From Escherichia phage AV109, in the sequence record OR352939.1: 64,000 bases of DNA. One strand, 5' to 3'. The stretch's first letter is position 1. Each line of letters opens with the position of its first letter. The translations under genes and the position numbers were made by a program. Of this stretch, positions 9,393-47,823 are shown piece after piece. Under the pieces are notes generated by a model that saw nothing but the letters and a program-made list of their open reading frames with translations, did not search any database and was not told the DNA's origin.

Positions 9393-9422
9393 ATTGTACC
9401 ACAATCCTTGTGGTATGTAAAC
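9393..9422 (-). promoter_or_regulatory. T4-type early promoter (GTTTAC / TACAAT)
   Basis: minus-strand GTTTAC at 9422-9417 and TACAAT at 9398-9393 upstream of rnlA. Confidence 0.45.
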
Positions 9423-9832
9423 TACTTTTTCTTATGTTGGATATTCCAAGGCGGGTTGAACTTTTTGATAAAAAGTGGTTCTTCAAGGTCCATTGTTGCG
9501 ATGGTCATTGAACCAAGTTCGTTGGTGACTGAAAGGTCAAAACATTGGCGGGCCCAGAATTCAACCTTTTTGCCTTGCATTAAGGCATCCAAAATCATAA
9601 GTGATTTTCTTGAATCTGAAGTCTGGTCTTTTCGATTTATGGCTGTTCGATAATAGTTAATGCGTTTCTTTAAATTCTTGGTTTTACCAATATACACAAG
9701 TTCGTCATCTATAGCAATAGCATATATAACATTTTTCTTATTAGGGGCATCAATGGTTTTAATTGTTGCATCTTCTAATAGCTCCAATTCTATATATTTA
9801 ATAAAGGAATATTCGGCGGCAATATCTTTCAT
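9422..9832 (-). CDS. denA: endonuclease II (GIY-YIG family, host DNA degradation)
   Basis: 136 aa as in T4; GIY-YIG-like VYIGKT motif; position between nrdB and rnlA. Confidence 0.8.
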   Translation of the reverse strand: MKDIAAEYSFIKYIELELLEDATIKTIDAPNKKNVIYAIAIDDELVYIGKTKNLKKRINYYRTAINRKDQTSDSRKSLMILDALMQGKKVEFWARQCFDLSVTNELGSMTIATMDLEEPLFIKKFNPPWNIQHKKK

Positions 9833-9858: not shown

Positions 9859-10361
9859 TTAGAAATATTTTTTGTATGAATTGATTACATTTTGGTCTAC
9901 ATCATTATCAATTTGTGCGACAAGATAAGAACTGATTTCAACTTCCTGAGGAGCTGCTTGAACTAAATCAGAGTTCAGATATTCACGAATCCAAGGATAA
10001 GGATGTTTGGTCGGAGCATCAGTAATTGGACACGGCAAACCACACTGTTTCATACGAGACACAGTCAAGTAATCAACAAAAGCACACATACTCTGTGTAT
10101 TGATACCTGGACATGTACCGTCTTTAAAGAGGTGTGCAGCCCATTCCTTCTCTTGACTATTTACTTCCATAAAAATGTCAACTGCTTCTTGTTCACATTC
10201 TTTAGCAATTTGAACCCACTCATCACCATCAGTACCGGATTGAAGTTGACGGATAATGTACTGAGTACCCTTGAGATGGAGTTGTTCGTCACGAGCAATG
10301 AACTTCATAATCTTTGCATTGCCTTCCATAATTTCCATATTCTTATGGAAATTAAATGTAC
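9859..10361 (-). CDS. nrdB: ribonucleotide reductase small subunit NrdB, exon 2
   Basis: encodes ..CTFNFHKNMEIMEGNAKIMKFIARDEQLH.. C-terminal half; joins exon 1 in frame to give a 392-aa product. Confidence 0.75.
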
Positions 10362-10953
10362 CGTTATGTTCGATTGAGCTCGCTAATTCTCAACCCGTTC
10401 TCTTATGAACTGCTGCATATTACTATGCAGACCAGACTATATCACAATCCCGGAGGGATTCTCCCCATTTCGAGTCGCTTGACCCTACGTCCGAAGACTA
10501 GTCGTTGAACCTTGCTTTGCAATTGTCGCCGTGCCATCGTTTATATGTCGATGGTGATAAATCTTTCTTTTCACAATATGGACAATTCAATTGAATTCTA
10601 TTTGGATTTAATTTGCATCTGTCATTATGTTTTAGATAAAACCCAGGACCTTTACCAATGTGACCGCAGAAATCACATGTGATTTCTTTTTGTGCAGGAT
10701 GGGTTCCGTTCTTAACCATTTCTAATGTTTTTGCTGATGTTCTTCCATCAGAATCTTTAGGTATAGGCCCGTTAGCATCCATCCAAATTTTTCTATAATT
10801 CAATTGTGCATCCTCTTAAAAGTATAATCATATTTATTTTATAATATACTAATTAAAGGTGCAAGCAAAACCTTGGCTGCTAGTTTTCCTATAAAGGACT
10901 TTCCAGCAATTAAAGGAGTTTTCGATAAACGTTACCGTTTAAAGGCGCATTTT
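10362..10953 (-). ncRNA. group I self-splicing intron in nrdB (approx. boundaries)
   Basis: exon 1 frame hits a stop immediately after conserved YVSFA; exon 2 resumes conserved NrdB sequence ~590 nt downstream; proposed splice sites follow exon-U / intron-G rule and restore frame; T4 nrdB has a similar intron. Confidence 0.65.
10498..10803 (-). CDS. intron-encoded endonuclease I-TevIII-like ORF (101 aa, probably truncated)
   Basis: ORF inside nrdB intron with Cys/His zinc-finger-like motifs (CDFCGH, CPYCEK); short compared with full-length I-TevIII of RB3. Confidence 0.55.
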   Translation of the reverse strand: MNYRKIWMDANGPIPKDSDGRTSAKTLEMVKNGTHPAQKEITCDFCGHIGKGPGFYLKHNDRCKLNPNRIQLNCPYCEKKDLSPSTYKRWHGDNCKARFND

Positions 10954-11629
10954 ACGCAAAAGATACATAAAAACGAATAGCTTCCAATGCATTGATGACA
11001 TGCAAACAAAGATAAAGAGATTTCATTAGGTCTCGTTTAGCTTCGGTCTCTTGTTTAATAGCTCGGTTTAAACGAAGGTCGGCATCAGGAGATTCTTTAG
11101 CTTGTTCTACAAATTCTTTAGCATTTTCCCAATTACGAGTCTTGACTAGAACATCATCATAATATTTACCTATTGATTCAGCTCGTTTCATGATTGCTTC
11201 GTCTAATACAATCTCATCAAATACTTTGGATGGATCGGTATAAAGATTTCGCATAATATGAGTATACGAACGAGAGTGAATAGTTTCACTGAATGTCCAT
11301 GTTGCAACCCACGTATCTAATGAAGGGTCGGAAAGCAGTGCCATAAGTACCGCAGATGGGGCCCTGCCTTGGATAGAATCTAATAATGATTGATACTTAA
11401 GGTTGTTTGTAAAGATGTCCTGTTGGAACTGAGGAAGCTTATTGAACTGGGCCGAATCCAGCATCAGGTTTACTTCTTCTGGTCGCCAGAAAAACGACAA
11501 TTGCTTTTCAATAAGTTCTTCAAAAACTTTATGTCGCTGAATATCATAACGTGCGAGGCCAAGACCAGAACCAAAGAACATTGGTTCATTCAAAACATCG
11601 ACTTGTTGTGTGTTAAAAACTGTACTCAT
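10954..11629 (-). CDS. nrdB: ribonucleotide reductase small subunit NrdB, exon 1
   Basis: N-terminal 225 aa ending ..EAIRFYVSFA, matching class Ia R2. Confidence 0.8.
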
Positions 11630-11684
11630 TATATTTTCTCACTTAGTTATTAACTCATCCATGAGTAAATTATAATCAAAAGTC

Positions 11685-13949
11685 TTAAAGCTTACAAGCA
11701 GAACAATCTTCAGCTTTAGGTGTTTCTAATTCATAGTCATCTGTACCTGACCCATCACGAGTGTTATGATAGTAGAGGTTTTTTCCGCCAAAGTACCAGA
11801 AGTAAAGCAGATCGTCAAGCATTACTGACATTGGCACTTTACCTTTCTCAAATACTGCAGGGTCATAGTAAGTATTAGCAGAAGCAGATTGGCACACCCA
11901 TTTCAACATGATAGCAACTTGGGTCAAATAAGGTTTATTACCTTTCTTAGCAAGTTTCCACGCGTAGTCGTAAAGACTCATGTTATGTTCTATATTAGGA
12001 ACAACCTGTCGGAAGTTGCCTTCTTTAGATTCTTTAATACTTACAGGTCCACGAGGTGGTTCTATACCATTTGTGCTATTTGAGACTTGACTGCTTGACT
12101 CACAAGGCATGAGTGCAGACAACGTTGAGTTACGAATTCCATGTTCTTTGAGTTCAGCTCGAAGTTCTTCCCAGTCACAGACATAGTTCGGGGCTGCGAT
12201 TTGGTCAATCTTTTTATTGTACCAGTCGATAGGTAATTCGCCTCTAGACCATTTAGTGTCTGAATAATACTCACAAGGTCCTTTTTCTTTGGCGAGTTTG
12301 ATTGATGCTTTGATAAGGCCATATTGCAATCTCTCGAACAATTCATGGGTCAAATCGTTAGCGTCTTCATATGAAGCAAAGTTAGAAGCTAACCATGCAG
12401 CATAGTTCGTCACACCAACACCGAGATTTCGACGCTTTTTAGCTTTTAAAGCTTCTGGAACCGGATAATCTTGATAGTCTAACAGGTTATCAAGTGCACG
12501 TACTTGTACTTCAGCAAGTTCATTAATTTTATCTTGGTCTTGCCAATCAAATTTATCTAATACAAAAGCAGATAATGTGCATAAACCAATTTCAGCATCA
12601 GGACCATTCACATCATTAGTTGGAATAGCGATTTCACAACATAAGTTACTCTGACGAATTGGAGCTTTTTCACGAATAAACGGAGTGTAGTTATTCGTGT
12701 TATCAACAAACTGTGGATAAATTCGAGCAGTGCCAGAACGTTCAGTCATGAACAATTCAAAGAGTTCTAGTGCTTTGATTCTTTTCTTTCTGATTGTTGG
12801 GTCTTTTTCAGCTTTCTCATAAAGCTCACGGAATTTATCTTGATCTTCAAAGAACGAGTAGTATAGTTCACCTGACATTTCGTGAGGGCTAAATAAAGTA
12901 ATATAATCATTTTTACCAAGGCGTTCCATCATAAGGTCATTAATCTGAATTCCGTAGTCCATATGTCGAATACGGTTTTCATCCACGCCTTTGTTATTTT
13001 TCAGAACTAATAGGTTCTCTACTTCTAAGTGCCACATCGGATAATACGCTGTAGCAGCACCACCACGAATACCACCTTGAGAACAAGATTTTACTGCAGT
13101 TTGGAAATGTTTCCAGAATGGAATAACACCCGTATGTCGGACTTCACCCATACCGATCTTAGAACCTTCTGCACGAAGCATACCAACGTTGATACCGATA
13201 CCAGCTCGTTTAGAAATATATTCAATAATTGATGCTGAAGTTTTGTTAATAGATTTTAACGAATCACCGGCTTCAATAACTACACAACTAGAGAACTGGC
13301 GAGTCGGAGTGCGAGCACCTGCCATAATTGGAGTAGGCAATGAAACTTGATGAGTAGAAACGGCATCATAAAAACGAATAATATGTTTCAAACGGTCATG
13401 AGTTTCGTCTTGATGTAAGGCCATACCAATAGCCATGATAGCAAACTGTGGAGTTTCATAAATCTTCCCAGTTGTTTTATCTTTAACCAAGTATTTTTCT
13501 TTAAGCTGCATAGCACCAGCATAAGTCAGGTCAAAGTCTCGTTCATGTTTAATCTGTGAATCGAGATAAATGATTTCTTCTGCTGAATATTTAGACAACA
13601 ACTCAGGGTCATATTTGCCTTCATTAACACAGTAAGAAATATGGTCGATAAAAGCAGGCGGTTCAAACTGCCCATATACATCTTTACGAAGTGCAAACAT
13701 TAGCCCTTTGGCGGCGACATACTGATAATCGGGTTCTTCGACAGAAATCAAGTTAGCTGCAACTTTAATACAAATCTTCTGAATATCTTTGGTGCTCATC
13801 CCATCAACCAGATGAGTCTTAATTTCTTCATACAATTCGTATGGGTCGATTTGTGTTCCTTCACACTGCCAAGTTAATACTTGAATAATTTTCTGTGCAT
13901 CAAAATTTTGGGATACACCTGAATTTTTCACTACTTTAAAATTATACAT
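11685..13949 (-). CDS. nrdA: ribonucleotide reductase large subunit NrdA
   Basis: 754 aa, near-identical to remembered T4 NrdA, ends ..DCSACKL. Confidence 0.95.
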   Translation of the reverse strand: MYNFKVVKNSGVSQNFDAQKIIQVLTWQCEGTQIDPYELYEEIKTHLVDGMSTKDIQKICIKVAANLISVEEPDYQYVAAKGLMFALRKDVYGQFEPPAFIDHISYCVNEGKYDPELLSKYSAEEIIYLDSQIKHERDFDLTYAGAMQLKEKYLVKDKTTGKIYETPQFAIMAIGMALHQDETHDRLKHIIRFYDAVSTHQVSLPTPIMAGARTPTRQFSSCVVIEAGDSLKSINKTSASIIEYISKRAGIGINVGMLRAEGSKIGMGEVRHTGVIPFWKHFQTAVKSCSQGGIRGGAATAYYPMWHLEVENLLVLKNNKGVDENRIRHMDYGIQINDLMMERLGKNDYITLFSPHEMSGELYYSFFEDQDKFRELYEKAEKDPTIRKKRIKALELFELFMTERSGTARIYPQFVDNTNNYTPFIREKAPIRQSNLCCEIAIPTNDVNGPDAEIGLCTLSAFVLDKFDWQDQDKINELAEVQVRALDNLLDYQDYPVPEALKAKKRRNLGVGVTNYAAWLASNFASYEDANDLTHELFERLQYGLIKASIKLAKEKGPCEYYSDTKWSRGELPIDWYNKKIDQIAAPNYVCDWEELRAELKEHGIRNSTLSALMPCESSSQVSNSTNGIEPPRGPVSIKESKEGNFRQVVPNIEHNMSLYDYAWKLAKKGNKPYLTQVAIMLKWVCQSASANTYYDPAVFEKGKVPMSVMLDDLLYFWYFGGKNLYYHNTRDGSGTDDYELETPKAEDCSACKL

Positions 13950-14589
13950 AATAATTCCATGTTGGATAATTTGATGATTTTAGACGGCGTCTAACCGTTT
14001 GGGTGCTCATAGATAAAATTATTGACGCTTCATTTAATGTATCATATATTACGTCGTTTATAATTACTTTCTTTGCAAATGGATTCTTAGCTCCTATCAT
14101 AGCGTTAGAAATAGCTTGCTTAGTTGATTCTTTTAATGGGACTCCTTTAGAAATTTTTGTTTTAATTTTTATATTGTATTGTCCGCGTTTTTTACCTAAT
14201 AAAGAATTTCGTATCTTTTCTTTAGTCTCTTCAGATTTAACATGTCCTAGTTTGGAACGAGATATTTTATCTTTTGTTTTTTGGTCTAATTTTCGCCCTT
14301 TAAGCAAATCAACCATTTTTGCTCTAGCCCATCCAAATTCTTTATTATTTCTAGAACTCATTAAATTAACCGCGGTTGCTAAACCTAAATTGTTCGGATA
14401 TATTTTTAATAAAAGAAGATGAGCCAAATAATGTTCTGAATATGTTAATTTAACTAGATTGTATGACTCATTGGTGCCACCTAAACATTTTGGGATTATA
14501 TGATGCCATTCACCATCGATATCTTCAAAATTTCTTTCTTTATTTACTAAGTTTTTATATATTTTTAAATAATCCATAGTATAATCCAC
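13942..14589 (-). CDS. HNH homing endonuclease (Mob-like) with NUMOD repeats and C-terminal HTH
   Basis: HNH block WHHIIPKCLGGTNESYNLVKLT..EHYLAH; freestanding between td-side ORF and nrdA. Confidence 0.75.
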   Translation of the reverse strand: MDYTMDYLKIYKNLVNKERNFEDIDGEWHHIIPKCLGGTNESYNLVKLTYSEHYLAHLLLLKIYPNNLGLATAVNLMSSRNNKEFGWARAKMVDLLKGRKLDQKTKDKISRSKLGHVKSEETKEKIRNSLLGKKRGQYNIKIKTKISKGVPLKESTKQAISNAMIGAKNPFAKKVIINDVIYDTLNEASIILSMSTQTVRRRLKSSNYPTWNYYV

Positions 14590-14653
14590 TTTGTAGTATC
14601 AACGGGATAGTATTTATCCCGTTAATTTTATTATACACTTTTAAACTGAAGCG

Positions 14654-14908
14654 TTAATTATCCTCAGCAATAATTTCTTCGTATTCTTTAGGTGTCAAGA
14701 CCGTGATATTGAAATAAACCAACGGTTCTTTTTCCACACCGTAACCACCACAGAATTCACGATATTCATAAATTCGTTCATGTGAATAACAAATGAATCG
14801 TTCACCTTTAACTATGATTTCACTATTCGGTGAAGGGATATCTAGTTCGGTAGGATTTTTCATTTCAAAAATTGTGGTGCCATATGAATTAATAAAACGT
14901 AAAATCAT
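14654..14908 (-). CDS. hypothetical protein (84 aa)
   Basis: ORF between td and HNH gene. Confidence 0.4.
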   Translation of the reverse strand: MILRFINSYGTTIFEMKNPTELDIPSPNSEIIVKGERFICYSHERIYEYREFCGGYGVEKEPLVYFNITVLTPKEYEEIIAEDN

Positions 14909-14909
14909 T

Positions 14910-15221
14910 TTATACCGCCATTTTAGCTTTGATAGCTGGATGTGATTCGTAATTTTTAAGAACGAAATCAGAATGTGTCATCGTTCCGGTAACCCAGTCC
15001 ATTTGGATTTTTGTAGGCCAATTCTCAAAATTACTAGGCCAATTAATTTCAAGAGAACATAACTCTTTAGGTTCACGACGAAGAACTTCTTTGCATTGTT
15101 CTACATGATTGCTGTAGATATGCGTGTTGCCGCCTGAGAACACTAAATCACCTGGGATAAGGTTACACATCTTCGCTACAATATGTGTCAAGGCAGCGTA
15201 CGAGGCGATGTTGAACGGTAG
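14910..15221 (-). CDS. td: thymidylate synthase, exon 2
   Basis: encodes LPFNIASYA..HIVAKMCNLIPGD..SGGNTHIY..; exon 2 begins one codon after the intron-terminal G of AUG, as in T4. Confidence 0.9.
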   Translation of the reverse strand, partial: LPFNIASYAALTHIVAKMCNLIPGDLVFSGGNTHIYSNHVEQCKEVLRREPKELCSLEINWPSNFENWPTKIQMDWVTGTMTHSDFVLKNYESHPAIKAKMAV

Positions 15222-15368
15222 CATTATGTTCAGATAAGGTCGTTAATCTTATCCCGGAATTATATCCAGCTGCATGTCACCATGCAGAGCAGACTATATC
15301 TCCAACTTGTTAAAGCAAGTTGTCTATCGTTTCGAGTCACTTGACCCTACTCCCTAAAGGGATAGTCG

Positions 15369-16112
15369 TTAGGCATTTATGTAGAACCAATTCCACTTAT
15401 CAGATTTTACACGGTAAGTAACTAATCCTGATGAAATTTCAAAATGTCTAGCCGCATCGGCTGCACATTCAAAAATAATCCCATCGCATGAAATCTTTTT
15501 GATGTTAGCTGGCTTTTTGCCTTTCATCTTTTCAGATAGTTTAGTTTTAGTTTTTTCTGAATGTTTGTGATTAAAGAACGGGTTATTTTCACCTGAACGT
15601 TTTCGGCACTTTCCACAAGTATCGGCCGAAGATGGTATGCGAACACCGCATTTACAAAACTTGTGGTTTTCTGGATTCCATCGGCCATTTTTACTTCCGT
15701 GTTTACCATAAAGAGCTTTCCGACCATCAGGACCAAGCTTAAGCATCTTAGCTTTAACAGTTTCAGCTCGTTTCTTAGCAATTTCTTCTTTTAATGGATG
15801 ATTTGAAAGCACATCGCCAAAAGACGCATCAGCAATATTATATCCATTAATTTTAGAATTTAGCTCTTTAATCCAAAAATTTTCTCGTTCAATAATCAAA
15901 TCTTTCTCATATGGAATTTCTTCCAGTATAGAGCATTCAAAAACATTACCATGTTTATTAAAAGACCTTTGAAATTTTATAGAAGAGTGAACACCGTTTT
16001 CAAGGTCTTTAAAATGTCTCTTCCATCTTTTCTCAAAATCTTTAGCACTTCCAACATACACTTTACCGTTTAAAGTGTTTTTAATCTGATAAATTCCGCT
16101 TTTCATAAACAC
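15369..16112 (-). CDS. I-TevI: intron-encoded GIY-YIG homing endonuclease I-TevI
   Basis: near-identical to remembered T4 I-TevI (KSGIYQIKNTLN.KVYVGSAKDFEKRWKRHFKDLE ... DAARHF.ISSGLVTYRVKSDKWNWFYINA); true start probably the third codon (MKSG). Confidence 0.9.
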   Translation of the reverse strand: MFMKSGIYQIKNTLNGKVYVGSAKDFEKRWKRHFKDLENGVHSSIKFQRSFNKHGNVFECSILEEIPYEKDLIIERENFWIKELNSKINGYNIADASFGDVLSNHPLKEEIAKKRAETVKAKMLKLGPDGRKALYGKHGSKNGRWNPENHKFCKCGVRIPSSADTCGKCRKRSGENNPFFNHKHSEKTKTKLSEKMKGKKPANIKKISCDGIIFECAADAARHFEISSGLVTYRVKSDKWNWFYINA

Positions 16113-16129
16113 CTCTTTTTATATAGAAG

Positions 16130-16137
16130 TATTTATT
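16130..16137 (-). promoter_or_regulatory. variant late-promoter-like motif (AATAAATA) upstream of I-TevI
   Basis: 7/8 match to TATAAATA on minus strand inside the td intron. Confidence 0.25.
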
Positions 16138-16237
16138 AAAGGGTAGTCCTACAATTTAGCACGGGATTGTCTACTAGAGAGGTCCCCCGTTTAGATAGAT
16201 TACAAGTATAAGTCACCTTATACCTAGGCCTAAATTA

Positions 16238-16786
16238 ACCTAAGAAAACATCTACACTGCGTTGATACCATTGTAAATCAAGATGTCCATTACGCACATT
16301 AAATTGATAGAACATATGACAAGGAGGAAGAGCCATTTGATTTATTTCAGCCGGATTCCAGGCAGAAACAATTTGACGACGATCAGTTGGTAATTTTTTA
16401 ATACGGTCGATTGTTTCAACTAATTGGTCTACACCACCAAAATCACGCCATTGCTTACCATAAATAGGACCAAGTTCGCCGCTATGATATCCAAGGTCTT
16501 TTGCCTGATTTTCATAGTTGTCGTCCCAAATAGTTTTACCTTGAATAAGACTACCATGAGTACGAATACGCAAATCATTAACATTTGTAGAGCCAGACAT
16601 GAACCATAATAGCTCAGCAATACAAGCTTTCCATGCAAGCTTCTTGGTTGTTACTGCAGGAAATCCTTTAGTCAGATCCCATCGCAATTTAGTTCCGAAC
16701 AGGGCAATAGTGCCGGTACCTGTACGGTCGTCTGTTTCGTAGCCATTTTCTAGGATATCATTAATCAGGTATTGGTATTGTTTCAT
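16238..16786 (-). CDS. td: thymidylate synthase, exon 1
   Basis: 183 codons ending ..QRSVDVFLG then in-frame intron stop; exons sum to 286 aa as in T4. Confidence 0.9.
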
Positions 16787-19207: not shown

Positions 19208-19861
19208 TTAATACTTACATGATTTGATTGTTTCTATGAACAATTTCTTAGCAGCATTTCTATCGATTTGAAGTATTTTTCGATATGCCTTTAATTTGGT
19301 AGAATAATTTTGCCAGACTAAGTTATCGGTGAGTTCGTCGTGCTTATCTATAATATTCAAAAATGAGTCCAACAATAAGAAAGTCTCAAATGAAATTATA
19401 TTGCTTTGTAGCAATTTGAATATGTAGCTCGACTGAACGTTGCTATTATAATCAAATATCTCTTGAAGCGCACTAACTTCAACTTTCTTACTGAAATAGT
19501 AGATGTTACGTACGTCTTCAGCAAACGACTCTTTAGCTTGTTTGAGACGTCCAATATATTCCCTATAGAAAACTAATGCATCAGCGTCTGATATCTCACC
19601 AATCCATGCGTCTTGGTTAGCAACTAAGTTGCTTATGAATATCAAGGTGAGTTCCTTCAATTTATATTTCTCTGCTAGTTTTTCAAAGAAATATTTATCT
19701 CGGCGTTTTTGATACGCATTATCCGAAACACGCATGCACCAGTTATATTTGATTACGTCATACCGACCACCAAAGTGGTTTTTGCACATCAAGTATAGTT
19801 TATATACTGATTTTCCATTAATATAACGTTCTCCGTCAGGAGGCATGCGTATTTTAATCAT
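19208..19861 (-). CDS. 59: gp59 helicase-loading protein
   Basis: 217 aa, near-identical to remembered T4 gp59. Confidence 0.92.
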   Translation of the reverse strand: MIKIRMPPDGERYINGKSVYKLYLMCKNHFGGRYDVIKYNWCMRVSDNAYQKRRDKYFFEKLAEKYKLKELTLIFISNLVANQDAWIGEISDADALVFYREYIGRLKQAKESFAEDVRNIYYFSKKVEVSALQEIFDYNSNVQSSYIFKLLQSNIISFETFLLLDSFLNIIDKHDELTDNLVWQNYSTKLKAYRKILQIDRNAAKKLFIETIKSCKY

Positions 19862-20537
19862 AGTTCCATCCAGGCCATTTTGAAGATTTAAGTCTATATG
19901 TAACTAAAGACGCAGAAATATTAAAAACATTTGAAACTTCTTTACACGAGGCGTATTTTATACCATCAATAATTATAGGTTTTTGTTTTTTAATAGTTCT
20001 TTCTTTAGAATGCGGCTTTGAATTTGCTATTCTAAGAGCTTCTTTGGTTGAATCAGGCATCGGCTTATTCGTTTTTCGCCCTTTTCGGACTTTACTCAAG
20101 GCCAATTTGTGAGCTTCAGATAGTTTCTTACCCTTATTAGGTGACGGTATTTTTCTTTCTAGTCTTGTTTTAGATACTTTAGCCTTAGTCTCTTCAGATC
20201 TAGGTTTACCTAATTTAGAAAGTGAAATAGACCTTTTAGCTTCATCACTTTGTTTTTTACCAGGACCACCTTTACCACCGGGAACTAAGTTATAAGTATC
20301 ATCTCGCAAAACAAAATCTTCATTAACCAATTCTGCTTCTTTTTTATAGGCGTCCTTGTCATTATCATATTCATAAAGAATTTCGGTATAAAAATTTTTT
20401 AGTCCATATTTAGCTTTGGCCGCTAATATAGCGCGGCCTGATCCAATATACCAATCTTTCTCTTTATGTTTTTTGTGTACGCCTATATAAATTTTACCAT
20501 TTATTTTATTGGTAGTTTTATACACAACGTATTTCAT
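19854..20537 (-). CDS. GIY-YIG homing endonuclease (Seg-like) with NUMOD repeats and C-terminal HTH
   Basis: N-terminal GKIYIGV..YIGSG motif, NUMOD-like repeats, C-terminal IDGIKYASCKEVSNVFNISASLVTYRLKS like I-TevI DNA-binding tail. Confidence 0.75.
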   Translation of the reverse strand: MKYVVYKTTNKINGKIYIGVHKKHKEKDWYIGSGRAILAAKAKYGLKNFYTEILYEYDNDKDAYKKEAELVNEDFVLRDDTYNLVPGGKGGPGKKQSDEAKRSISLSKLGKPRSEETKAKVSKTRLERKIPSPNKGKKLSEAHKLALSKVRKGRKTNKPMPDSTKEALRIANSKPHSKERTIKKQKPIIIDGIKYASCKEVSNVFNISASLVTYRLKSSKWPGWNYD

Positions 20538-39106: not shown

Positions 39107-39664
39107 TTAAAGATGAAGATACCACCCGTTGTAGTTGCTCTTGCGGACGATTTTCTTTAGGTCTTCATGGTCTCCCACGAACTTTATAGAATAAGAGAAG
39201 ACGTCAGGTGAGGTTTCTTTGACATCTAATATAATAATGCAATCTGCGACTCGATGGTTCAAGAAGGGCCCTATATTGATTCCATTACCACCAGGATAAT
39301 CACCACTGTATCCTGTGGTAACCGAAATCCATTTAGAATCTATCTGGTGCGTCTTGACTTCGACACGCAACCCGCAGTATTTAGGATGAGCTAACACGTC
39401 CCATGCATACGTGTACGGGTCTTCTACGTCTTCATTACCTTTATTAACATATCCATCTAGCCAATTTGCTACTACATACTCTGCAAAGACTGCAACCTTA
39501 CAACGTCGAACAACGTCTTCTTTTATTTGACCTGGATCTTGTTTCAACGAGTACCGAGCAGTGTCAGCAATCTTCACCTTCATTTCACTAGTCAAAAACT
39601 CATTCGACAGGATAAATGTCGGAAGATTCTTCAGCCTCAACAGCCCCAAGTTCGTCTTTACCAT
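39107..39664 (-). CDS. denB: probable endonuclease IV (DenB-like), 185 aa from ATG 39664
   Basis: position adjacent to rIIB as in T4; internal ATG with AGAGGT SD gives exactly the T4 DenB length; identity not verified by sequence. Confidence 0.45.
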   Translation of the reverse strand: MVKTNLGLLRLKNLPTFILSNEFLTSEMKVKIADTARYSLKQDPGQIKEDVVRRCKVAVFAEYVVANWLDGYVNKGNEDVEDPYTYAWDVLAHPKYCGLRVEVKTHQIDSKWISVTTGYSGDYPGGNGINIGPFLNHRVADCIIILDVKETSPDVFSYSIKFVGDHEDLKKIVRKSNYNGWYLHL

Positions 39665-44510: not shown

Positions 44511-44528
44511 AAGCTCCCGAAGGAGCTT
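44511..44528 (-). terminator. hairpin AAGCUCC-UUCG-GGAGCUU overlapping HNH gene stop
   Basis: 7-bp stem, UUCG loop, followed by CAUUUUAAUUUU. Confidence 0.5.
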
Positions 44529-45339
44529 AGGACATCCAACACATTTTATAACCTTTGCAGGTTCTGTTAGGATTATTTAATGCTTTCAATATATTAGAAG
44601 ACCCTATATCTAAATACTCCCTTAATTCATAAAGATAGTTAAAATCAATAGTTTCACCTGTTTTTACACTTGTGATTCTTATAGGCCTTCTTTCATATTT
44701 AGATTTATACAACTCTCTAGTCTTAGCTTTAGTTTCTTCTGACCTAGGAGTGTATGGTTTAAATCCTTTTGTTTTAAATGTTTCCATTCTTGATTTAGTT
44801 ATTTTATCCTGGTGTTCTTTTGTTTTTACAGGTGCTTTTCGCCCATTCTCCCAAGATAACTTGTTGGCCTGTATTATTTTATCTATTGCTTCTTGCGTAT
44901 GAGTTTTACCATAAAATGGATTTAATTCGCCTATACGTTGTGAAGCAATATGTGACATTAATTCTCTTGTTGCTTTAGTATGTTTTTTACCTTTAAATGG
45001 ATTGCCATTTTTAGCAATCCATTCTTTCATAAATCTAGAGTGCTCTTTAGAGAATTCTTGTTTAAGCCAATCATAATCTCTAGAATTTCTAGCTCCCATG
45101 TAAAAAGCTCTAATAGCCATAAGCATAGAACGGTTCTTATGAATTTTATAAAGCAATAAATGGGCGATAAAATGCTCTCTAGGGGTCATTTTAACTAGAT
45201 TTGATTTAGCATTACTCCCACCCATAGATTTAGGCAAAATATGGTGAGTTTCAGTATAATTAGGAATAGTGCTGCGGTTTTTAGCCGCAGCGATAAGTTT
45301 ATCATAAATTTTACGATAATTCATTATCCTAGCATCCAA
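44527..45339 (-). CDS. HNH homing endonuclease (Mob-like) with NUMOD repeats
   Basis: HNH block THHILPKSMGGSNAKSNLVKMT..EHFIAH; NUMOD-like repeats; freestanding immediately downstream of gene 39. Confidence 0.75.
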   Translation of the reverse strand: MDARIMNYRKIYDKLIAAAKNRSTIPNYTETHHILPKSMGGSNAKSNLVKMTPREHFIAHLLLYKIHKNRSMLMAIRAFYMGARNSRDYDWLKQEFSKEHSRFMKEWIAKNGNPFKGKKHTKATRELMSHIASQRIGELNPFYGKTHTQEAIDKIIQANKLSWENGRKAPVKTKEHQDKITKSRMETFKTKGFKPYTPRSEETKAKTRELYKSKYERRPIRITSVKTGETIDFNYLYELREYLDIGSSNILKALNNPNRTCKGYKMCWMS

Positions 45340-47162
45340 TCTTTACGGAGTTCAGGGTCGTTACCCATGAGCATTTCAAATAGTTCTTTCCAATTTTCAG
45401 GAAGTTTAACTACGTCGTACACAGGGTTTTGAATCATTTCTTTATATTCATCCCGCTGAAGTGAGCCCAATCCCTTGATGTATCGAATACTATGCTTAGG
45501 CAGTGTATCTTTAACTTCTTCATACTCAGCTACAGTATAAAACCATTTTTGAGTTTTGCCAATTTGTGCAATAATTACAGGCGTTTTAACAAAGCGAATA
45601 CGTCCTTGTTCAAACAATTCAGGCCAATTACTAAAGAAAGCAAGCAAAGCCGGATAAATACTTCCAAGGCCGTCATGATCGGCATCGGTCATAATTGCAA
45701 TATTACGGTAGTTCGTATTCTCTGCCTTTTCACCAAGAATAAGACCCGTGATAGCACAGATATCAAAGAGCTCTTTGTTCTTCATCATATCGGCATATGA
45801 CATACCCCAGCTATTCATCACCTTACCACGTAATGGGAATCCGCCGTGTAGTTCACGGTCACGAACATCAATGAGATAACCAATTGCCGAATCACCTTCT
45901 GTTAAAAACAATGTCGTATCTGCATCTTTACCACATTGGTTAGCTTTAATATGCTTATGAACCTTAGCTTTAGTTGCCTTTTTAGCTGCTTTAGTTTCTG
46001 CAGCCTTTTCTGCTGCCAATTTACGAGCTAATGCGGCTTCAATTATAGGCATTAAAACTGCTTCAGAATTCAAAATATTTTTTGCCAATTTTTTTGTATC
46101 TAATTTAATATGCGTCCGAATTTCGCCATAAGGACTTGTTAAACGCTCTTTGGTTTGGGAATCAAAACGAAGGTTCTTCATTCCACGAACGAACATTAAG
46201 AGAGTGAGACATTCCTTGATTCGCGCTTTAGTCACGTCGATTTTATATTTGCGTTTAATAGCCGGAATTAATTCTTCGCTAATGTCGTCCATCACACATT
46301 CAATGTGATGACCACCGTTTTTGGTATGGATGTTATTCACATAAGTTAAATGACGGAAGCCATCTGGTGACCGTCCAATGGCAATAGAGCATCCGTCTTG
46401 TTCTTGAATGATGGTCTCTTCATCAAATTGTTTAGCAAACTTCTTAAAGTTACCTTGAATCTTTTTGCCATTAAATTTAAATTCAATACCAGGATAAACG
46501 ACCGCCAATGTTTGGAGCCGGTCTATAGTAATATCTTGGTATATTTTTTCAAATTGATTCATTTCAAAATGTGAGAAATCAGGAATAAACTCGACCTTAG
46601 TACCGTTGTTTTTAGACGGCTTAGATTTCCAAGAAATATTATCAGCGTTATTAGAACAATTAACGGTCAATTCATTTTTACCATCTGAAGTAGTGCCAAC
46701 AAAAGAGACAGAAAAAATATTTGTTAATGAAGAACCGACACCGTTTTGTCCACCCGTAACACGTTCTTTGTCGTCACCAAAGTTGCCACCGGCTTTTGTA
46801 CGTGTCCACGCCGCAACTGGTCCTGGAATTTCTTCTCCTTCAGGAGTAATAACTGTTTCTTGAGGAATACCTCGACCATTATCTTCAACAGTCACTTTAT
46901 TAGAATTTAAATCAATACTAACGGAAATTTTATTAGCATATTTGAAATTGGTTCGAATAGCTTCGTCTACTGAGTTGTCAATAATTTCATCAATTAATTT
47001 GAGAACACCTGCAACATATTTAACCTTTTTAAATTCACCGAATAGGAAACGTTCTTGTTCTTCATTGGCAACACTTCCAATATACATGCCAGGACGCTTC
47101 AAACAATGCTCTTTATCAGATAGCATTTCAATTTTATTATCAATCATTAGATTTTCTCTCAA
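45324..47162 (-). CDS. 39: DNA topoisomerase II large subunit gp39 (GyrB-like ATPase), unsplit
   Basis: 612 aa single ORF covering the regions that are split into genes 39 and 60 in T4; GHKL ATPase and TOPRIM motifs. Confidence 0.92.
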   Translation of the reverse strand: MRENLMIDNKIEMLSDKEHCLKRPGMYIGSVANEEQERFLFGEFKKVKYVAGVLKLIDEIIDNSVDEAIRTNFKYANKISVSIDLNSNKVTVEDNGRGIPQETVITPEGEEIPGPVAAWTRTKAGGNFGDDKERVTGGQNGVGSSLTNIFSVSFVGTTSDGKNELTVNCSNNADNISWKSKPSKNNGTKVEFIPDFSHFEMNQFEKIYQDITIDRLQTLAVVYPGIEFKFNGKKIQGNFKKFAKQFDEETIIQEQDGCSIAIGRSPDGFRHLTYVNNIHTKNGGHHIECVMDDISEELIPAIKRKYKIDVTKARIKECLTLLMFVRGMKNLRFDSQTKERLTSPYGEIRTHIKLDTKKLAKNILNSEAVLMPIIEAALARKLAAEKAAETKAAKKATKAKVHKHIKANQCGKDADTTLFLTEGDSAIGYLIDVRDRELHGGFPLRGKVMNSWGMSYADMMKNKELFDICAITGLILGEKAENTNYRNIAIMTDADHDGLGSIYPALLAFFSNWPELFEQGRIRFVKTPVIIAQIGKTQKWFYTVAEYEEVKDTLPKHSIRYIKGLGSLQRDEYKEMIQNPVYDVVKLPENWKELFEMLMGNDPELRKDWMLG

Positions 47163-47823
47163 ATTGCATGACTATATTTTTGTATGAACCTTCCGGAAAT
47201 CCACGTTTAATGCTTTCTTTAGCAAATTTCCCAACCTTTGGTTTATCCAATTCTAACCATAATTTATATAAAGCAGATTCATATTCCCATACAGGACTTT
47301 TACGATTTTTAAGCCCACACTTTATAAGCGCTTCCTTTGTATGTTTCTTATTATAAAATGGATTGTTTTTGCCACTCATTGCTTTAGAATGTTCCGGGCG
47401 CTTAATTCCATACATCGGATTAAGATCGCCTTTCTTGATAACGGATTGTAGTTCAATAGTTTCTTCAGAGTGATTGTGTCCATAAAATGGATTTAACTCT
47501 TTTGAAACATCCATACCAAAGCACCCATCGACTGTGGCATAAGACATGTTGAAAAATTTTTCAGATTTAACCACATTATGCAATTTCTGGTAATACAACT
47601 CACAAAACGTCGCTTCTTCCCGTGTATCAAATTCGCCAATAATACATGAATCAAATAAATGAGGATTATCTTTTATCTCTTTATCATAAATTTGTTTATA
47701 TTTTTTCGACTTTACCGTACCATGATAGTGATTGTTTGTATGTTTATCAAGATAAGTAGACCCTATATAAAACGGTGGCAACTTATCGCCTGTGTATATT
47801 GTTAAGTATGTTATGTATTTCAT
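47140..47823 (-). CDS. GIY-YIG homing endonuclease (Seg-like) with NUMOD repeats
   Basis: N-terminal YLTIYTG..FYIGST motif; repeated NPFYG.xHSEET / NPMYG / NPFYNKKHT modules; no obvious SD. Confidence 0.7.
   Translation of the reverse strand: MKYITYLTIYTGDKLPPFYIGSTYLDKHTNNHYHGTVKSKKYKQIYDKEIKDNPHLFDSCIIGEFDTREEATFCELYYQKLHNVVKSEKFFNMSYATVDGCFGMDVSKELNPFYGHNHSEETIELQSVIKKGDLNPMYGIKRPEHSKAMSGKNNPFYNKKHTKEALIKCGLKNRKSPVWEYESALYKLWLELDKPKVGKFAKESIKRGFPEGSYKNIVMQFERKSND

Follow-up and report, generated by a model that had tools for sequence, protein, structure and literature searches.

The td-nrdB region of the 64,000-nucleotide (nt) stretch of Escherichia phage AV109 analysed here (OR352939.1; "the window" denotes this whole stretch) contains two group I introns, one in td and one in nrdB. 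Each carries an open reading frame (ORF) related to a homing endonuclease of T4-like phages, I-TevI in td and a remnant of I-TevIII in nrdB, and a free-standing HNH homing-endonuclease gene lies upstream of nrdA (Table 1). The two split genes, their introns and the HNH gene are all on the minus strand. According to the annotation of phage AV114 and the list of ORFs, the order on that strand is frd, td exon 1, I-TevI, td exon 2, an nrdA.2-like ORF, the HNH gene, nrdA, nrdB exon 1, a small 'homing endonuclease', nrdB exon 2, denA and an RNA ligase gene. The explanation that we consider very probable is that these elements are classical T-even group I self-splicing introns (subgroup IA2-type) at the canonical td and nrdB sites of a phage of the Mosigvirus lineage.

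Such introns of td and nrdB are already known biology, as are free-standing endonucleases of the Mob type, and all are ordinary for T4-like phages. What is new here consists of allele-level details only: I-TevIII has an in-frame deletion of its own, the nrdB intron has no mobE beside it, and an HNH cassette, which is rare, has replaced the first codons of nrdA.

Table 1. Positions of the features in the window (for helices, the two strands are separated by a slash; aa, amino acids; bp, base pairs)
Feature	Position	Strand	Size	Remarks
nrdB exon 2	9859-10361	-		starts GUACAUUU...
nrdB group I intron	10362-10953	-	592 nt	last base of the 5' exon is U (10954), that of the intron G (10362)
nrdB helices P1 to P4	P1 10954-10957/10945-10948; P2 10936-10940/10927-10931; P3 10913-10918/10461-10466; P4 10903-10908/10878-10883	-		
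nrdB helices P5 to P8	P5 10895-10898/10887-10890; P6 10875-10876/10510-10511; P7 10499-10503/10435-10439; P8 10455-10459/10447-10451	-		
nrdB helices P9 to P9.2	P9 10424-10430/10413-10419; P9.1 10407-10410/10397-10400; P9.2 10389-10393/10374-10378	-		
I-TevIII remnant	10498-10803	-	101 aa	native TTG start; defined by comparison with I-TevIII of RB9 and with the T4 remnant
Deletion junction	10737-10744	-		single copy of AAGAACAT
nrdB exon 1	10954-11629	-	676 nt	ends ...UUUGCGU
nrdA	11685-13949	-	754 aa	55 nt from nrdB
HNH cassette	13920-14600	-	681 nt	replaces 56 nt of the empty-site allele; from comparison with Mosigviruses AV110 and G2469
MobE-type HNH homing-endonuclease gene	13942-14577	-	211 aa	counted from ATG; ORF extends to GTG 14589
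Promoter-like element and 9-bp hairpin	14601-14657	-		TTAACG-16-TATAAT, hairpin at 14601-14623; upstream of nrdA; putative function
nrdA.2-like small ORF	14654-14908	-	84 aa	Pfam DUF5496; 37% identical to T4 NrdA.2
td exon 2	14910-15221	-		starts CUACCG...
td group I intron	15222-16237	-	1016 nt	length exact; starts UAAUUUAGGCC, ends ...AACAUAAUG
td helices P1 to P4	P1 16238-16244/16223-16229; P2 16217-16222/16207-16212; P3 16194-16199/15323-15328; P4 16185-16190/16161-16166	-		
td helices P6 to P7	P6 16159-16160/15373-15374; P6a 16146-16153/15380-15387; P7 15362-15367/15292-15297	-		
td helices P8 to P9.2	P8 15316-15322/15303-15309; P9 15281-15287/15270-15276; P9.2 15248-15253/15233-15238	-		
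I-TevI orthologue	15369-16106	-	245 aa	GIY-YIG; ATG start; looped out of P6a
td exon 1	16238-16786	-	549 nt	ends ...CUUAGGU; joined with exon 2 gives 286-aa Td
Seg-like GIY-YIG free-standing gene	19854-20537			TIGR01453, 73.9 bits
Mob-like HNH gene	44527-45324			
NUMOD3-motif gene	47140-47823			best match PHROG 10820, 'HNH endonuclease' family

Splice sites and group I structure of the td and nrdB introns

A first-pass annotation of the window had placed in td a T4-like intron of 1016 nt encoding I-TevI, and this is borne out. Its identity with the T4 counterpart is 90.3% over the full length (94-99% in the core), the flanking bases and intron ends are the same, and its removal gives an in-frame td of 861 nt. 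The deduced Td aligns over positions 1-286 with the T4 Td structure 1TIS and is contiguous across the junction (...VDVFLG/LPFNIA...). The nrdB splice sites, previously proposed from the restored frame, prove to be exact: the bases on both sides of each of them are the same as in T4, and the intron is 97.6% identical at aligned bases to the 598-nt T4 intron (94.5-97.6% across comparisons) and 97.3% identical to the RB9 intron outside the deletion described below. Spliced nrdB (1179 nt, 392 aa) is in frame and its product aligns with E. coli R2 through the junction (...RFYVSFAC/TFNF...), the Cys codon being split U/GU. In the GenBank records of AV114 and its relatives (OR352944.1, MK327934.1), td and nrdB each appear as two separate coding sequences with neither joins nor intron features, and the annotation of the G2469 record reads 'unable to determine exon/intron boundaries'. 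The exact splice sites found here would correct the public annotation of both genes.

Explicit P1-P9.2 structures, with P7 as a pseudoknot, were written on ORF-less constructs, on which the pairs were counted. Both introns have the conserved P3-P4-P6 and P7-P3-P8 core with its P3/P7 pseudoknot; the pairs of P3, P4, P6, P7 and P8 in the window are all standard and the core helices are 100% paired. P3, P4 and P7, the elements that the first-pass annotation had proposed to look for in the nrdB insert, are thus all present there. For the 74 named pairs of the td intron, 99.4% of the cells are paired (31-41% in a control with slid partners), and for the 65 named pairs of the nrdB intron, 99.6% (34-44% in the control). 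In both introns, the 5' splice site follows the U of a U.G pair in P1 and the last nucleotide is a G, the exon sequence CUUAGGU being paired with the guide GCCUAGG in td, and GCGU with GCGC in nrdB. An unconstrained minimum free energy fold of the ORF-less nrdB intron returns nine hairpins (P2, P4, P5, P6a, P7.1, P8, P9, P9.1 and P9.2). No convincing P7.2 could be drawn in the nrdB intron and no convincing P10 in either intron, and both elements are outside the pair counts.

Comparison with relatives reveals compensatory changes at four pairs of each intron: double changes in P2 (two), P5 and P9 of nrdB, and changes in P8 (two) and P9.2 (two) of td. They occur only in P2, P5, P8, P9 and P9.2, as P3, P4, P6 and P7 are invariant among the relatives used. 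In addition, td P1 remains paired thanks to changes on both sides, a synonymous one in the exon and others in the guide sequence.

In a scan of the whole window by E-value with the Rfam covariance models, exactly two matches were obtained, both to RF00028 with E ~1.5e-5, one in the td intron (15270-15500, 36.2 bits) and the other in the nrdB intron (10413-10650, 35.9 bits). Two natural ORF-less introns, that of nrdB in phage CJY920 (71.7 bits) and that of td in phage HP3.2 (70.3 bits), score above the Rfam threshold and align base for base with the ends of the window introns. The latter fall below the threshold because the ORFs located in P6/P6a split the core, as the ORF-less versions pass. 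Taking the absence of a match at the gathering threshold as absence of an intron was therefore rejected, the ORFs in P6 accounting for the shortfall. As for the check with a group I model that had been proposed, the covariance model stays sub-threshold in the window itself, and the core is seen through the ORF-less relatives and the pair counts. Natural ORF-less nrdB or td introns are found at positions 801-1109 of the CJY920 locus, 801-1120 of the HP3.2 locus and 301-554 of the GRNsp7 locus.

Several points weigh against the assignment of these introns and against the activities proposed below. At the curated gathering score (50 bits), the Rfam scan of the window gave no match, neither intron reaching this score. 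The structures were derived from the window sequence, which biases the slid-partner control in their favour, and the covariation was drawn from 5-7 close relatives only. The P1 of nrdB, as drawn, has only 4 base pairs and the P7.1 of td has one mispair in the window. Finally, splicing, homing and HNH activity in this phage all rest on homology.

On such grounds, the nrdB insert could be viewed as a decayed, splicing-dead relic that would make nrdB a pseudogene and the phage dependent on the host ribonucleotide reductase. Its endonuclease is already degenerate, its Rfam score in the window is sub-threshold and its P1 is short. We nevertheless regard such a relic as extremely improbable. All the nrdB core helices are fully paired in the window, and both exons keep an intact frame that leads to a full-length R2. 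At every position of the alignment of ORF-less nrdB introns, the window has the state found in T4 or in RB9 (species Tequatrovirus RB3), so that no state is specific to the window. The low Rfam score is accounted for by the ORF in P6, as illustrated by the score of the ORF-less intron of CJY920.

It is established that the T4 intron splices and that the RB3 intron homes (PMC1865063 and references therein, refs 5-7). Because the introns of the window are 90-98% identical to those of T4 and RB3, which were shown to splice in published work, we infer that both undergo guanosine-initiated self-splicing. By analogy with T4 and RB3, the process can be viewed as follows: each pre-mRNA would fold into the P1-P9.2 core, an exogenous guanosine in P7 would attack the phosphate that follows the U of the P1 U.G pair, and the freed 5' exon would then attack after the terminal G, thus joining the exons and allowing the synthesis of intact Td and NrdB.

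An intact I-TevI in the td intron

The endonuclease encoded by the td intron is 89% identical to T4 I-TevI over a gap-free alignment. It has scores above the cut-offs for three Pfam domains, GIY-YIG (PF01541), I-TevI_ZnF and I-TevI_DNA-bd (PF22635 and PF20987 being the other two accessions), which represent the catalytic domain, the zinc finger of the linker and the helix-turn-helix DNA-binding domain at the C-terminus, and it has a TIGR01453 score of 183 bits. Y6, Y17, R27, E75, N90, C151, C153, C164 and C167, which we take to be catalytic or zinc-binding residues, are all unchanged. Its start is the ATG given in Table 1, the GTG at 16112 being only the mechanical limit of the ORF, and the end of its coding sequence, stop codon included, runs into the 3' strands of both P6a and P6. 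Judging from its sequence, this I-TevI is intact and should be active; therefore, the td intron should still home into intron-less td alleles. Homing would involve double-strand-break repair, initiated by the I-TevI encoded in the P6a loop.

A remnant of I-TevIII in the nrdB intron

The 101-aa ORF of the nrdB intron had been described as looking like a truncated I-TevIII. Alignment with the 269-aa protein of RB9 confirms that it is a remnant of I-TevIII with zinc fingers and that residues ~22-189 are missing; it results, however, from an internal in-frame deletion and not from a truncation, as the first ~21 residues are fused to the last ~80 (~190-269). In agreement with this, PHROG 12324 matches the remnant at profile positions 189-269. 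The H-N-H catalytic motif lies in the deleted part and no Pfam HNH match was found in the remnant. Both C-terminal CX2CX12-13HX3C zinc fingers and the dimerisation region are kept, including the cysteines that match C211/C214 and C242/C245 and all their His/Cys partners. The stop codon of the remnant is located in the 5' strand of P7.

The CX2CX12-13HX3C zinc-finger motif was described in I-TevIII (PMC1865063), which in RB3 makes a double-strand break as a dimer (PMC1865063). The H-N-H motif of this protein is catalytic and residue 166 bounds its minimal DNA-binding domain (Robbins et al., PMC1865063). The 194C fragment binds two zinc ions and dimerises, and gives no DNA shift (PMC1865063). 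By comparison with these data, the 101-aa remnant is predicted to be non-catalytic and is probably unable to bind DNA. As such a protein would not cleave DNA, the nrdB intron would therefore be immobile by itself.

A AATAAATA motif is found ~30 nt upstream of the start codons of the ORFs of both introns (10838 and 16137 region; intron positions 116 and 101). The consensus of T4 late promoters is TATAAATA, to which AATAAATA is near. A 5-nt insertion located upstream of the remnant ORF was suspected to have destroyed its late promoter; this idea was dropped, AATAAATA remaining in both introns, and no claim is made either way.

Origin and fate of the I-TevIII deletion

Compared with the full-length RB9 intron (1091 nt), the nrdB intron of the window lacks 504 nt (168 codons) and that of T4 lacks 491 nt. 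The first assumption, that both derive from the same deletion, was rejected by the alignment of the junctions, which read ...GATGGAAGAA/CATAAGAAAAGAACATCAGC... in T4 and ...GATGGAAGAACATCAGC... in the window and differ by 13 nt. The T4 deletion is frameshifting and its remnant is read from a different ATG, whereas that of the window is in frame and keeps the native TTG and ~21 residues. The 504 nt missing from the window are present in phages JM17, NRG-P0074 and G2469, and in JM17 they lie between the copies of a perfect direct repeat of 8 bp, AAGAACAT, of which the window retains one. Among 117 phage records that include this part of the intron, ~80 have a full-length ORF and ~33 have T4-type or further-decayed junctions; the junction of the window occurs in only 4, which are those of the AV114 clade. 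JM17, whose ORF is full-length, shares with the window a specific 5-nt insertion and two substitutions that are lacking in T4, RB9, G2469 and NRG-P0074.

Because the junction differs from that of T4 and because an element with a full-length ORF shares the specific markers of the window, the simplest reading of these sequences is that the deletion arose from a JM17-like allele, independently of the T4 event. The endonuclease gene of such a full-length allele would have lost 504 nt, including the H-N-H motif, by microhomology or slippage between the two AAGAACAT repeats.

Alternatively, the allele of the window might derive from a T4-type one by a second deletion, of 13 nt, between two AAGAACA copies, the frame being restored by chance. 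The T4-type junction still has both copies of this repeat, 13 nt apart; a slip of 13 nt is, in mechanistic terms, easier than one of 504 nt; and further small deletions do occur in T4-type alleles. The window, however, has none of the substitutions and indels that are specific to T4, and its 5-nt insertion and two substitutions, unseen in T4 or in the other four aligned sequences, are found in JM17 along with a full-length ORF. Furthermore, JM17 and AV114 are both Mosigviruses of Danish pig origin, the former from feces and the latter from waste. A second deletion in a T4-type allele is therefore highly improbable.

There have thus been at least two losses of the I-TevIII catalytic domain, one in T4 and the other in the AV114 clade, with microhomologies at the same left endpoint (GGAAGAACA). 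It could be proposed that this repeated loss is a route of domestication and that the remnant is expressed, dimerises and fulfils a separate function, such as poisoning I-TevIII dimers or regulating the expression of the intron or of nrdB; we hold such a domestication to be very unlikely. Under this proposal, the zinc-finger protein would be maintained by selection, as a poison that dimerises with the full-length I-TevIII of co-infecting phages or as a regulator. The deletion is exactly in frame, and the native start, the late-promoter-like AATAAATA upstream of it and both zinc fingers are kept. The C-terminal ~75 aa suffice for dimerisation and zinc binding (PMC1865063), and the independent deletion of T4 likewise leaves the C-terminal domain translatable. 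The equivalent 194C fragment, however, does not bind DNA (PMC1865063), and the last codons of the remnant overlap P6a, P6 and P7, so that they are constrained by the ribozyme anyway. Moreover, the allele is found in four sister isolates only. Other phages point to decay: the remnant has undergone smaller further losses in F26, FL18 and ESh36 (1-2 nt, causing frameshifts, or 12 nt), and the entire I-TevIII ORF has been lost between ACAATTG repeats in CJY920. Taken as a whole, these data make a selected function of the remnant a distinctly poor candidate, and simple decay of the endonuclease gene is preferred.

A free-standing HNH cassette upstream of nrdA

The free-standing HNH gene that had been reported at 13942-14589 is real and does lie between td and nrdA. 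Its start likely corresponds to the ATG at 14577 and not to 14589, because its homologues begin at that Met and AV114 is annotated likewise. Its stop overlaps the nrdA ATG. The N-terminal ~75 residues carry a MobE-like HH...N...H motif and are 47% identical to RB9 MobE and 33% to T4 MobE (BLASTP E-values of 4e-22 and 2e-20, respectively, for the protein). The HNH protein belongs to PHROG 655 (E 7e-46) and contains a NUMOD3 motif, followed at the C-terminus by a DNA-binding region with a weak resemblance to that of I-TevI. In a sequence search of the PDB, its only match, to the DNA-binding domain of I-TevI, was marginal (E 0.28), and no HNH homologue of solved structure was obtained. The possibility that this gene is a diverged nrdA.1 was rejected, as T4 nrdA.1 shows no similarity to the HNH protein.

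The HNH gene belongs to a cassette that is present or absent at a fixed site, with sharp edges, among near-identical Mosigviruses. Its right edge is inside nrdA, where 10 new codons (MYNFKVVKNS) stand in place of the original first 7 (MQVTKSS); this boundary was read by eye from the shared GGTGTATCCCAAAATTTTGATGC, MAFFT having misaligned that flank. The left edge abuts the promoter-like element and hairpin, which are also found in phages devoid of the HNH gene. Phage NRG-P0074 carries the same cassette at the same site together with a full-length I-TevIII, and AV110, which lacks the cassette, also has an nrdB devoid of intron. At a protein identity of at least 95%, the HNH gene is present in 11 of 50,697 phage records.

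Located behind the nrdA promoter region, the HNH gene would be coupled to nrdA in translation. Co-transcription of the two genes is probable, and the cassette-less junction is the probable target. This proposal is based on an analogy with MobE, whose HH...N...H motif is needed for nicking (PMC2790892): the presumed substrate of the HNH protein is the td-nrdA junction of related phages without the cassette, which it would nick or cut before the cassette is copied in by repair.

One observation weighs against this proposal, as the HNH protein matches no curated Pfam HNH model. Combined with its presence in 11 records only, this could indicate an inactive or domesticated remnant that is not currently mobile. 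Such a status seems unlikely, since the 211-aa ORF is intact and its HH...N...H motif aligns with the one needed for MobE nicking (PMC2790892). The association of NUMOD3 with a C-terminal I-TevI-like region is a typical homing-endonuclease modularity, and the presence/absence polymorphism with sharp edges also speaks for mobility. A mobile HNH cassette is thus retained as the preferred reading.

The HNH gene is ~3 kb from the nrdB intron site. The co-conversion associated with I-TevI reaches at most 2 kb, as quoted in PMC2790892, and the HNH gene is thus probably too far to mobilise the nrdB intron. Comparison of the ORF list with the T4 map indicates that mobE is absent, because the spacer between nrdA and nrdB is too short to hold it, being only 55 nt. 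Nothing in this phage therefore appears able to mobilise its nrdB intron.

Genomic setting and other endonuclease genes

The 7.1-kb region around these elements is a 100% match to Escherichia phage AV114 (OR352944.1, filed under Mosigvirus), with the exception of a single-base gap; three sister isolates of AV114 (AV115, AV116 and AV118) match it at 99.0-99.4% over the same region. Due to the gap, the match extends over 7101 nt in the window and 7100 nt in the deposited AV114 sequence, and downstream coordinates are shifted by one. The one-base difference from OR352944.1 probably sits in the run of A residues within the promoter-like region that precedes the HNH gene (window ~14620-14630).

Domain and family searches agree with the six homing-endonuclease genes that the first-pass annotation had counted in the 64 kb: besides the I-TevIII remnant, the HNH gene and I-TevI, the window has three further homing-endonuclease-like genes (Table 1). 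The Seg-like gene is located between the helicase-loader gene and the next gene and overlaps both. The Mob-like HNH gene and the NUMOD3-motif gene flank an unsplit gene for the topoisomerase large subunit (45324-47162), a neighbourhood that in T4 contains mobA and the gene 39/60 split. The products of denA (9422-9832) and denB (39107-39583) are nucleases, not homing endonucleases.

Horizontal origin of the introns

The introns are far closer to those of T4 than are the genes that harbour them. When aligned bases are compared with T4, identity is 79.4% and 79.3% for the two nrdB exons and 97.6% for the nrdB intron; in td, it is 79.8% and 69.6% for the exons and 90.3% for the intron. Because of this difference, both introns are, on the evidence of their sequences, considered as having been acquired horizontally by this diverged lineage. 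The 50 nt of nrdB exon on each side of the intron are 88-90% identical to T4, which fits short co-conversion tracts. Horizontal transfer of T-even introns has already been described.

The last ~130 nt of td (14910-15040, 3' end of exon 2) include a small indel and share only 48-68% identity with T4, versus ~80% for the rest of the gene. The 3' end of td being far more diverged than the remainder, the C-terminal region of Td differs from that of T4.

Besides, in the td intron of Proteus phage ABTNLPp2, a 24-nt P9.2 segment (GGGTTGAGAACTAGCGAGCTCAAT) is identical to the P9.2 of the nrdB intron of Salmonella phage S16 and unlike that of T4 td. This sequence identity suggests a domain exchange between td and nrdB introns. 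Shuffling between T4 introns has been reported before.

These elements provide one more example of a known story, in which T-even introns move horizontally into diverged phages and their endonuclease genes decay afterwards. The I-TevIII microhomology deletion and the nrdB intron with neither its own endonuclease nor mobE are neat examples of it, and they open no new question.

Comparison with T4, RB3/RB9 and MobE

The td intron of T4 occupies the same insertion site, has the same length (1016 nt) and carries its ORF at the same place in the P6a loop. The td gene of T4 is only 70-80% identical to that of the window, unlike the intron (90%). The intron of the window differs in its P1, with a synonymous exon change accompanied by guide changes, and in one weakened P7.1 pair.

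The nrdB intron of RB3/RB9 (1091 nt, with a full-length 269-aa I-TevIII) is the same intron at the same site, and its zinc fingers, compared in RB9, are identical to those of the window save one D-to-E change. The RB3/RB9 protein has residues ~22-189 with the H-N-H domain, which the window lacks; an RB3-type double-strand break would thus not be made. The nrdB intron of T4, also inserted at the same site, has an endonuclease likewise disabled by loss of the H-N-H domain with its zinc fingers kept. In T4, however, the neighbouring mobE can mobilise the nrdB intron in trans (PMC2790892), whereas the phage studied here is devoid of mobE.

The gene order is the same as on the T4 map apart from two differences. 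T4 has nrdB.1 and mobE between nrdA and nrdB, where only a spacer is found here, and it has nrdA.1 at the place held here by the HNH gene. This gene and the MobE genes of T4 and RB9 are alike in being free-standing, intergenic in the nrd cluster, downstream of the promoter of a neighbour and polymorphic for presence/absence. They differ by their location, MobE being encoded between nrdA and nrdB and the HNH protein upstream of nrdA, in place of T4 nrdA.1; by the C-terminal half of the HNH protein, with its NUMOD3 motif and I-TevI-like region; and by the effect of the insertion, which in the case of the HNH gene rewrites the first codons of nrdA.

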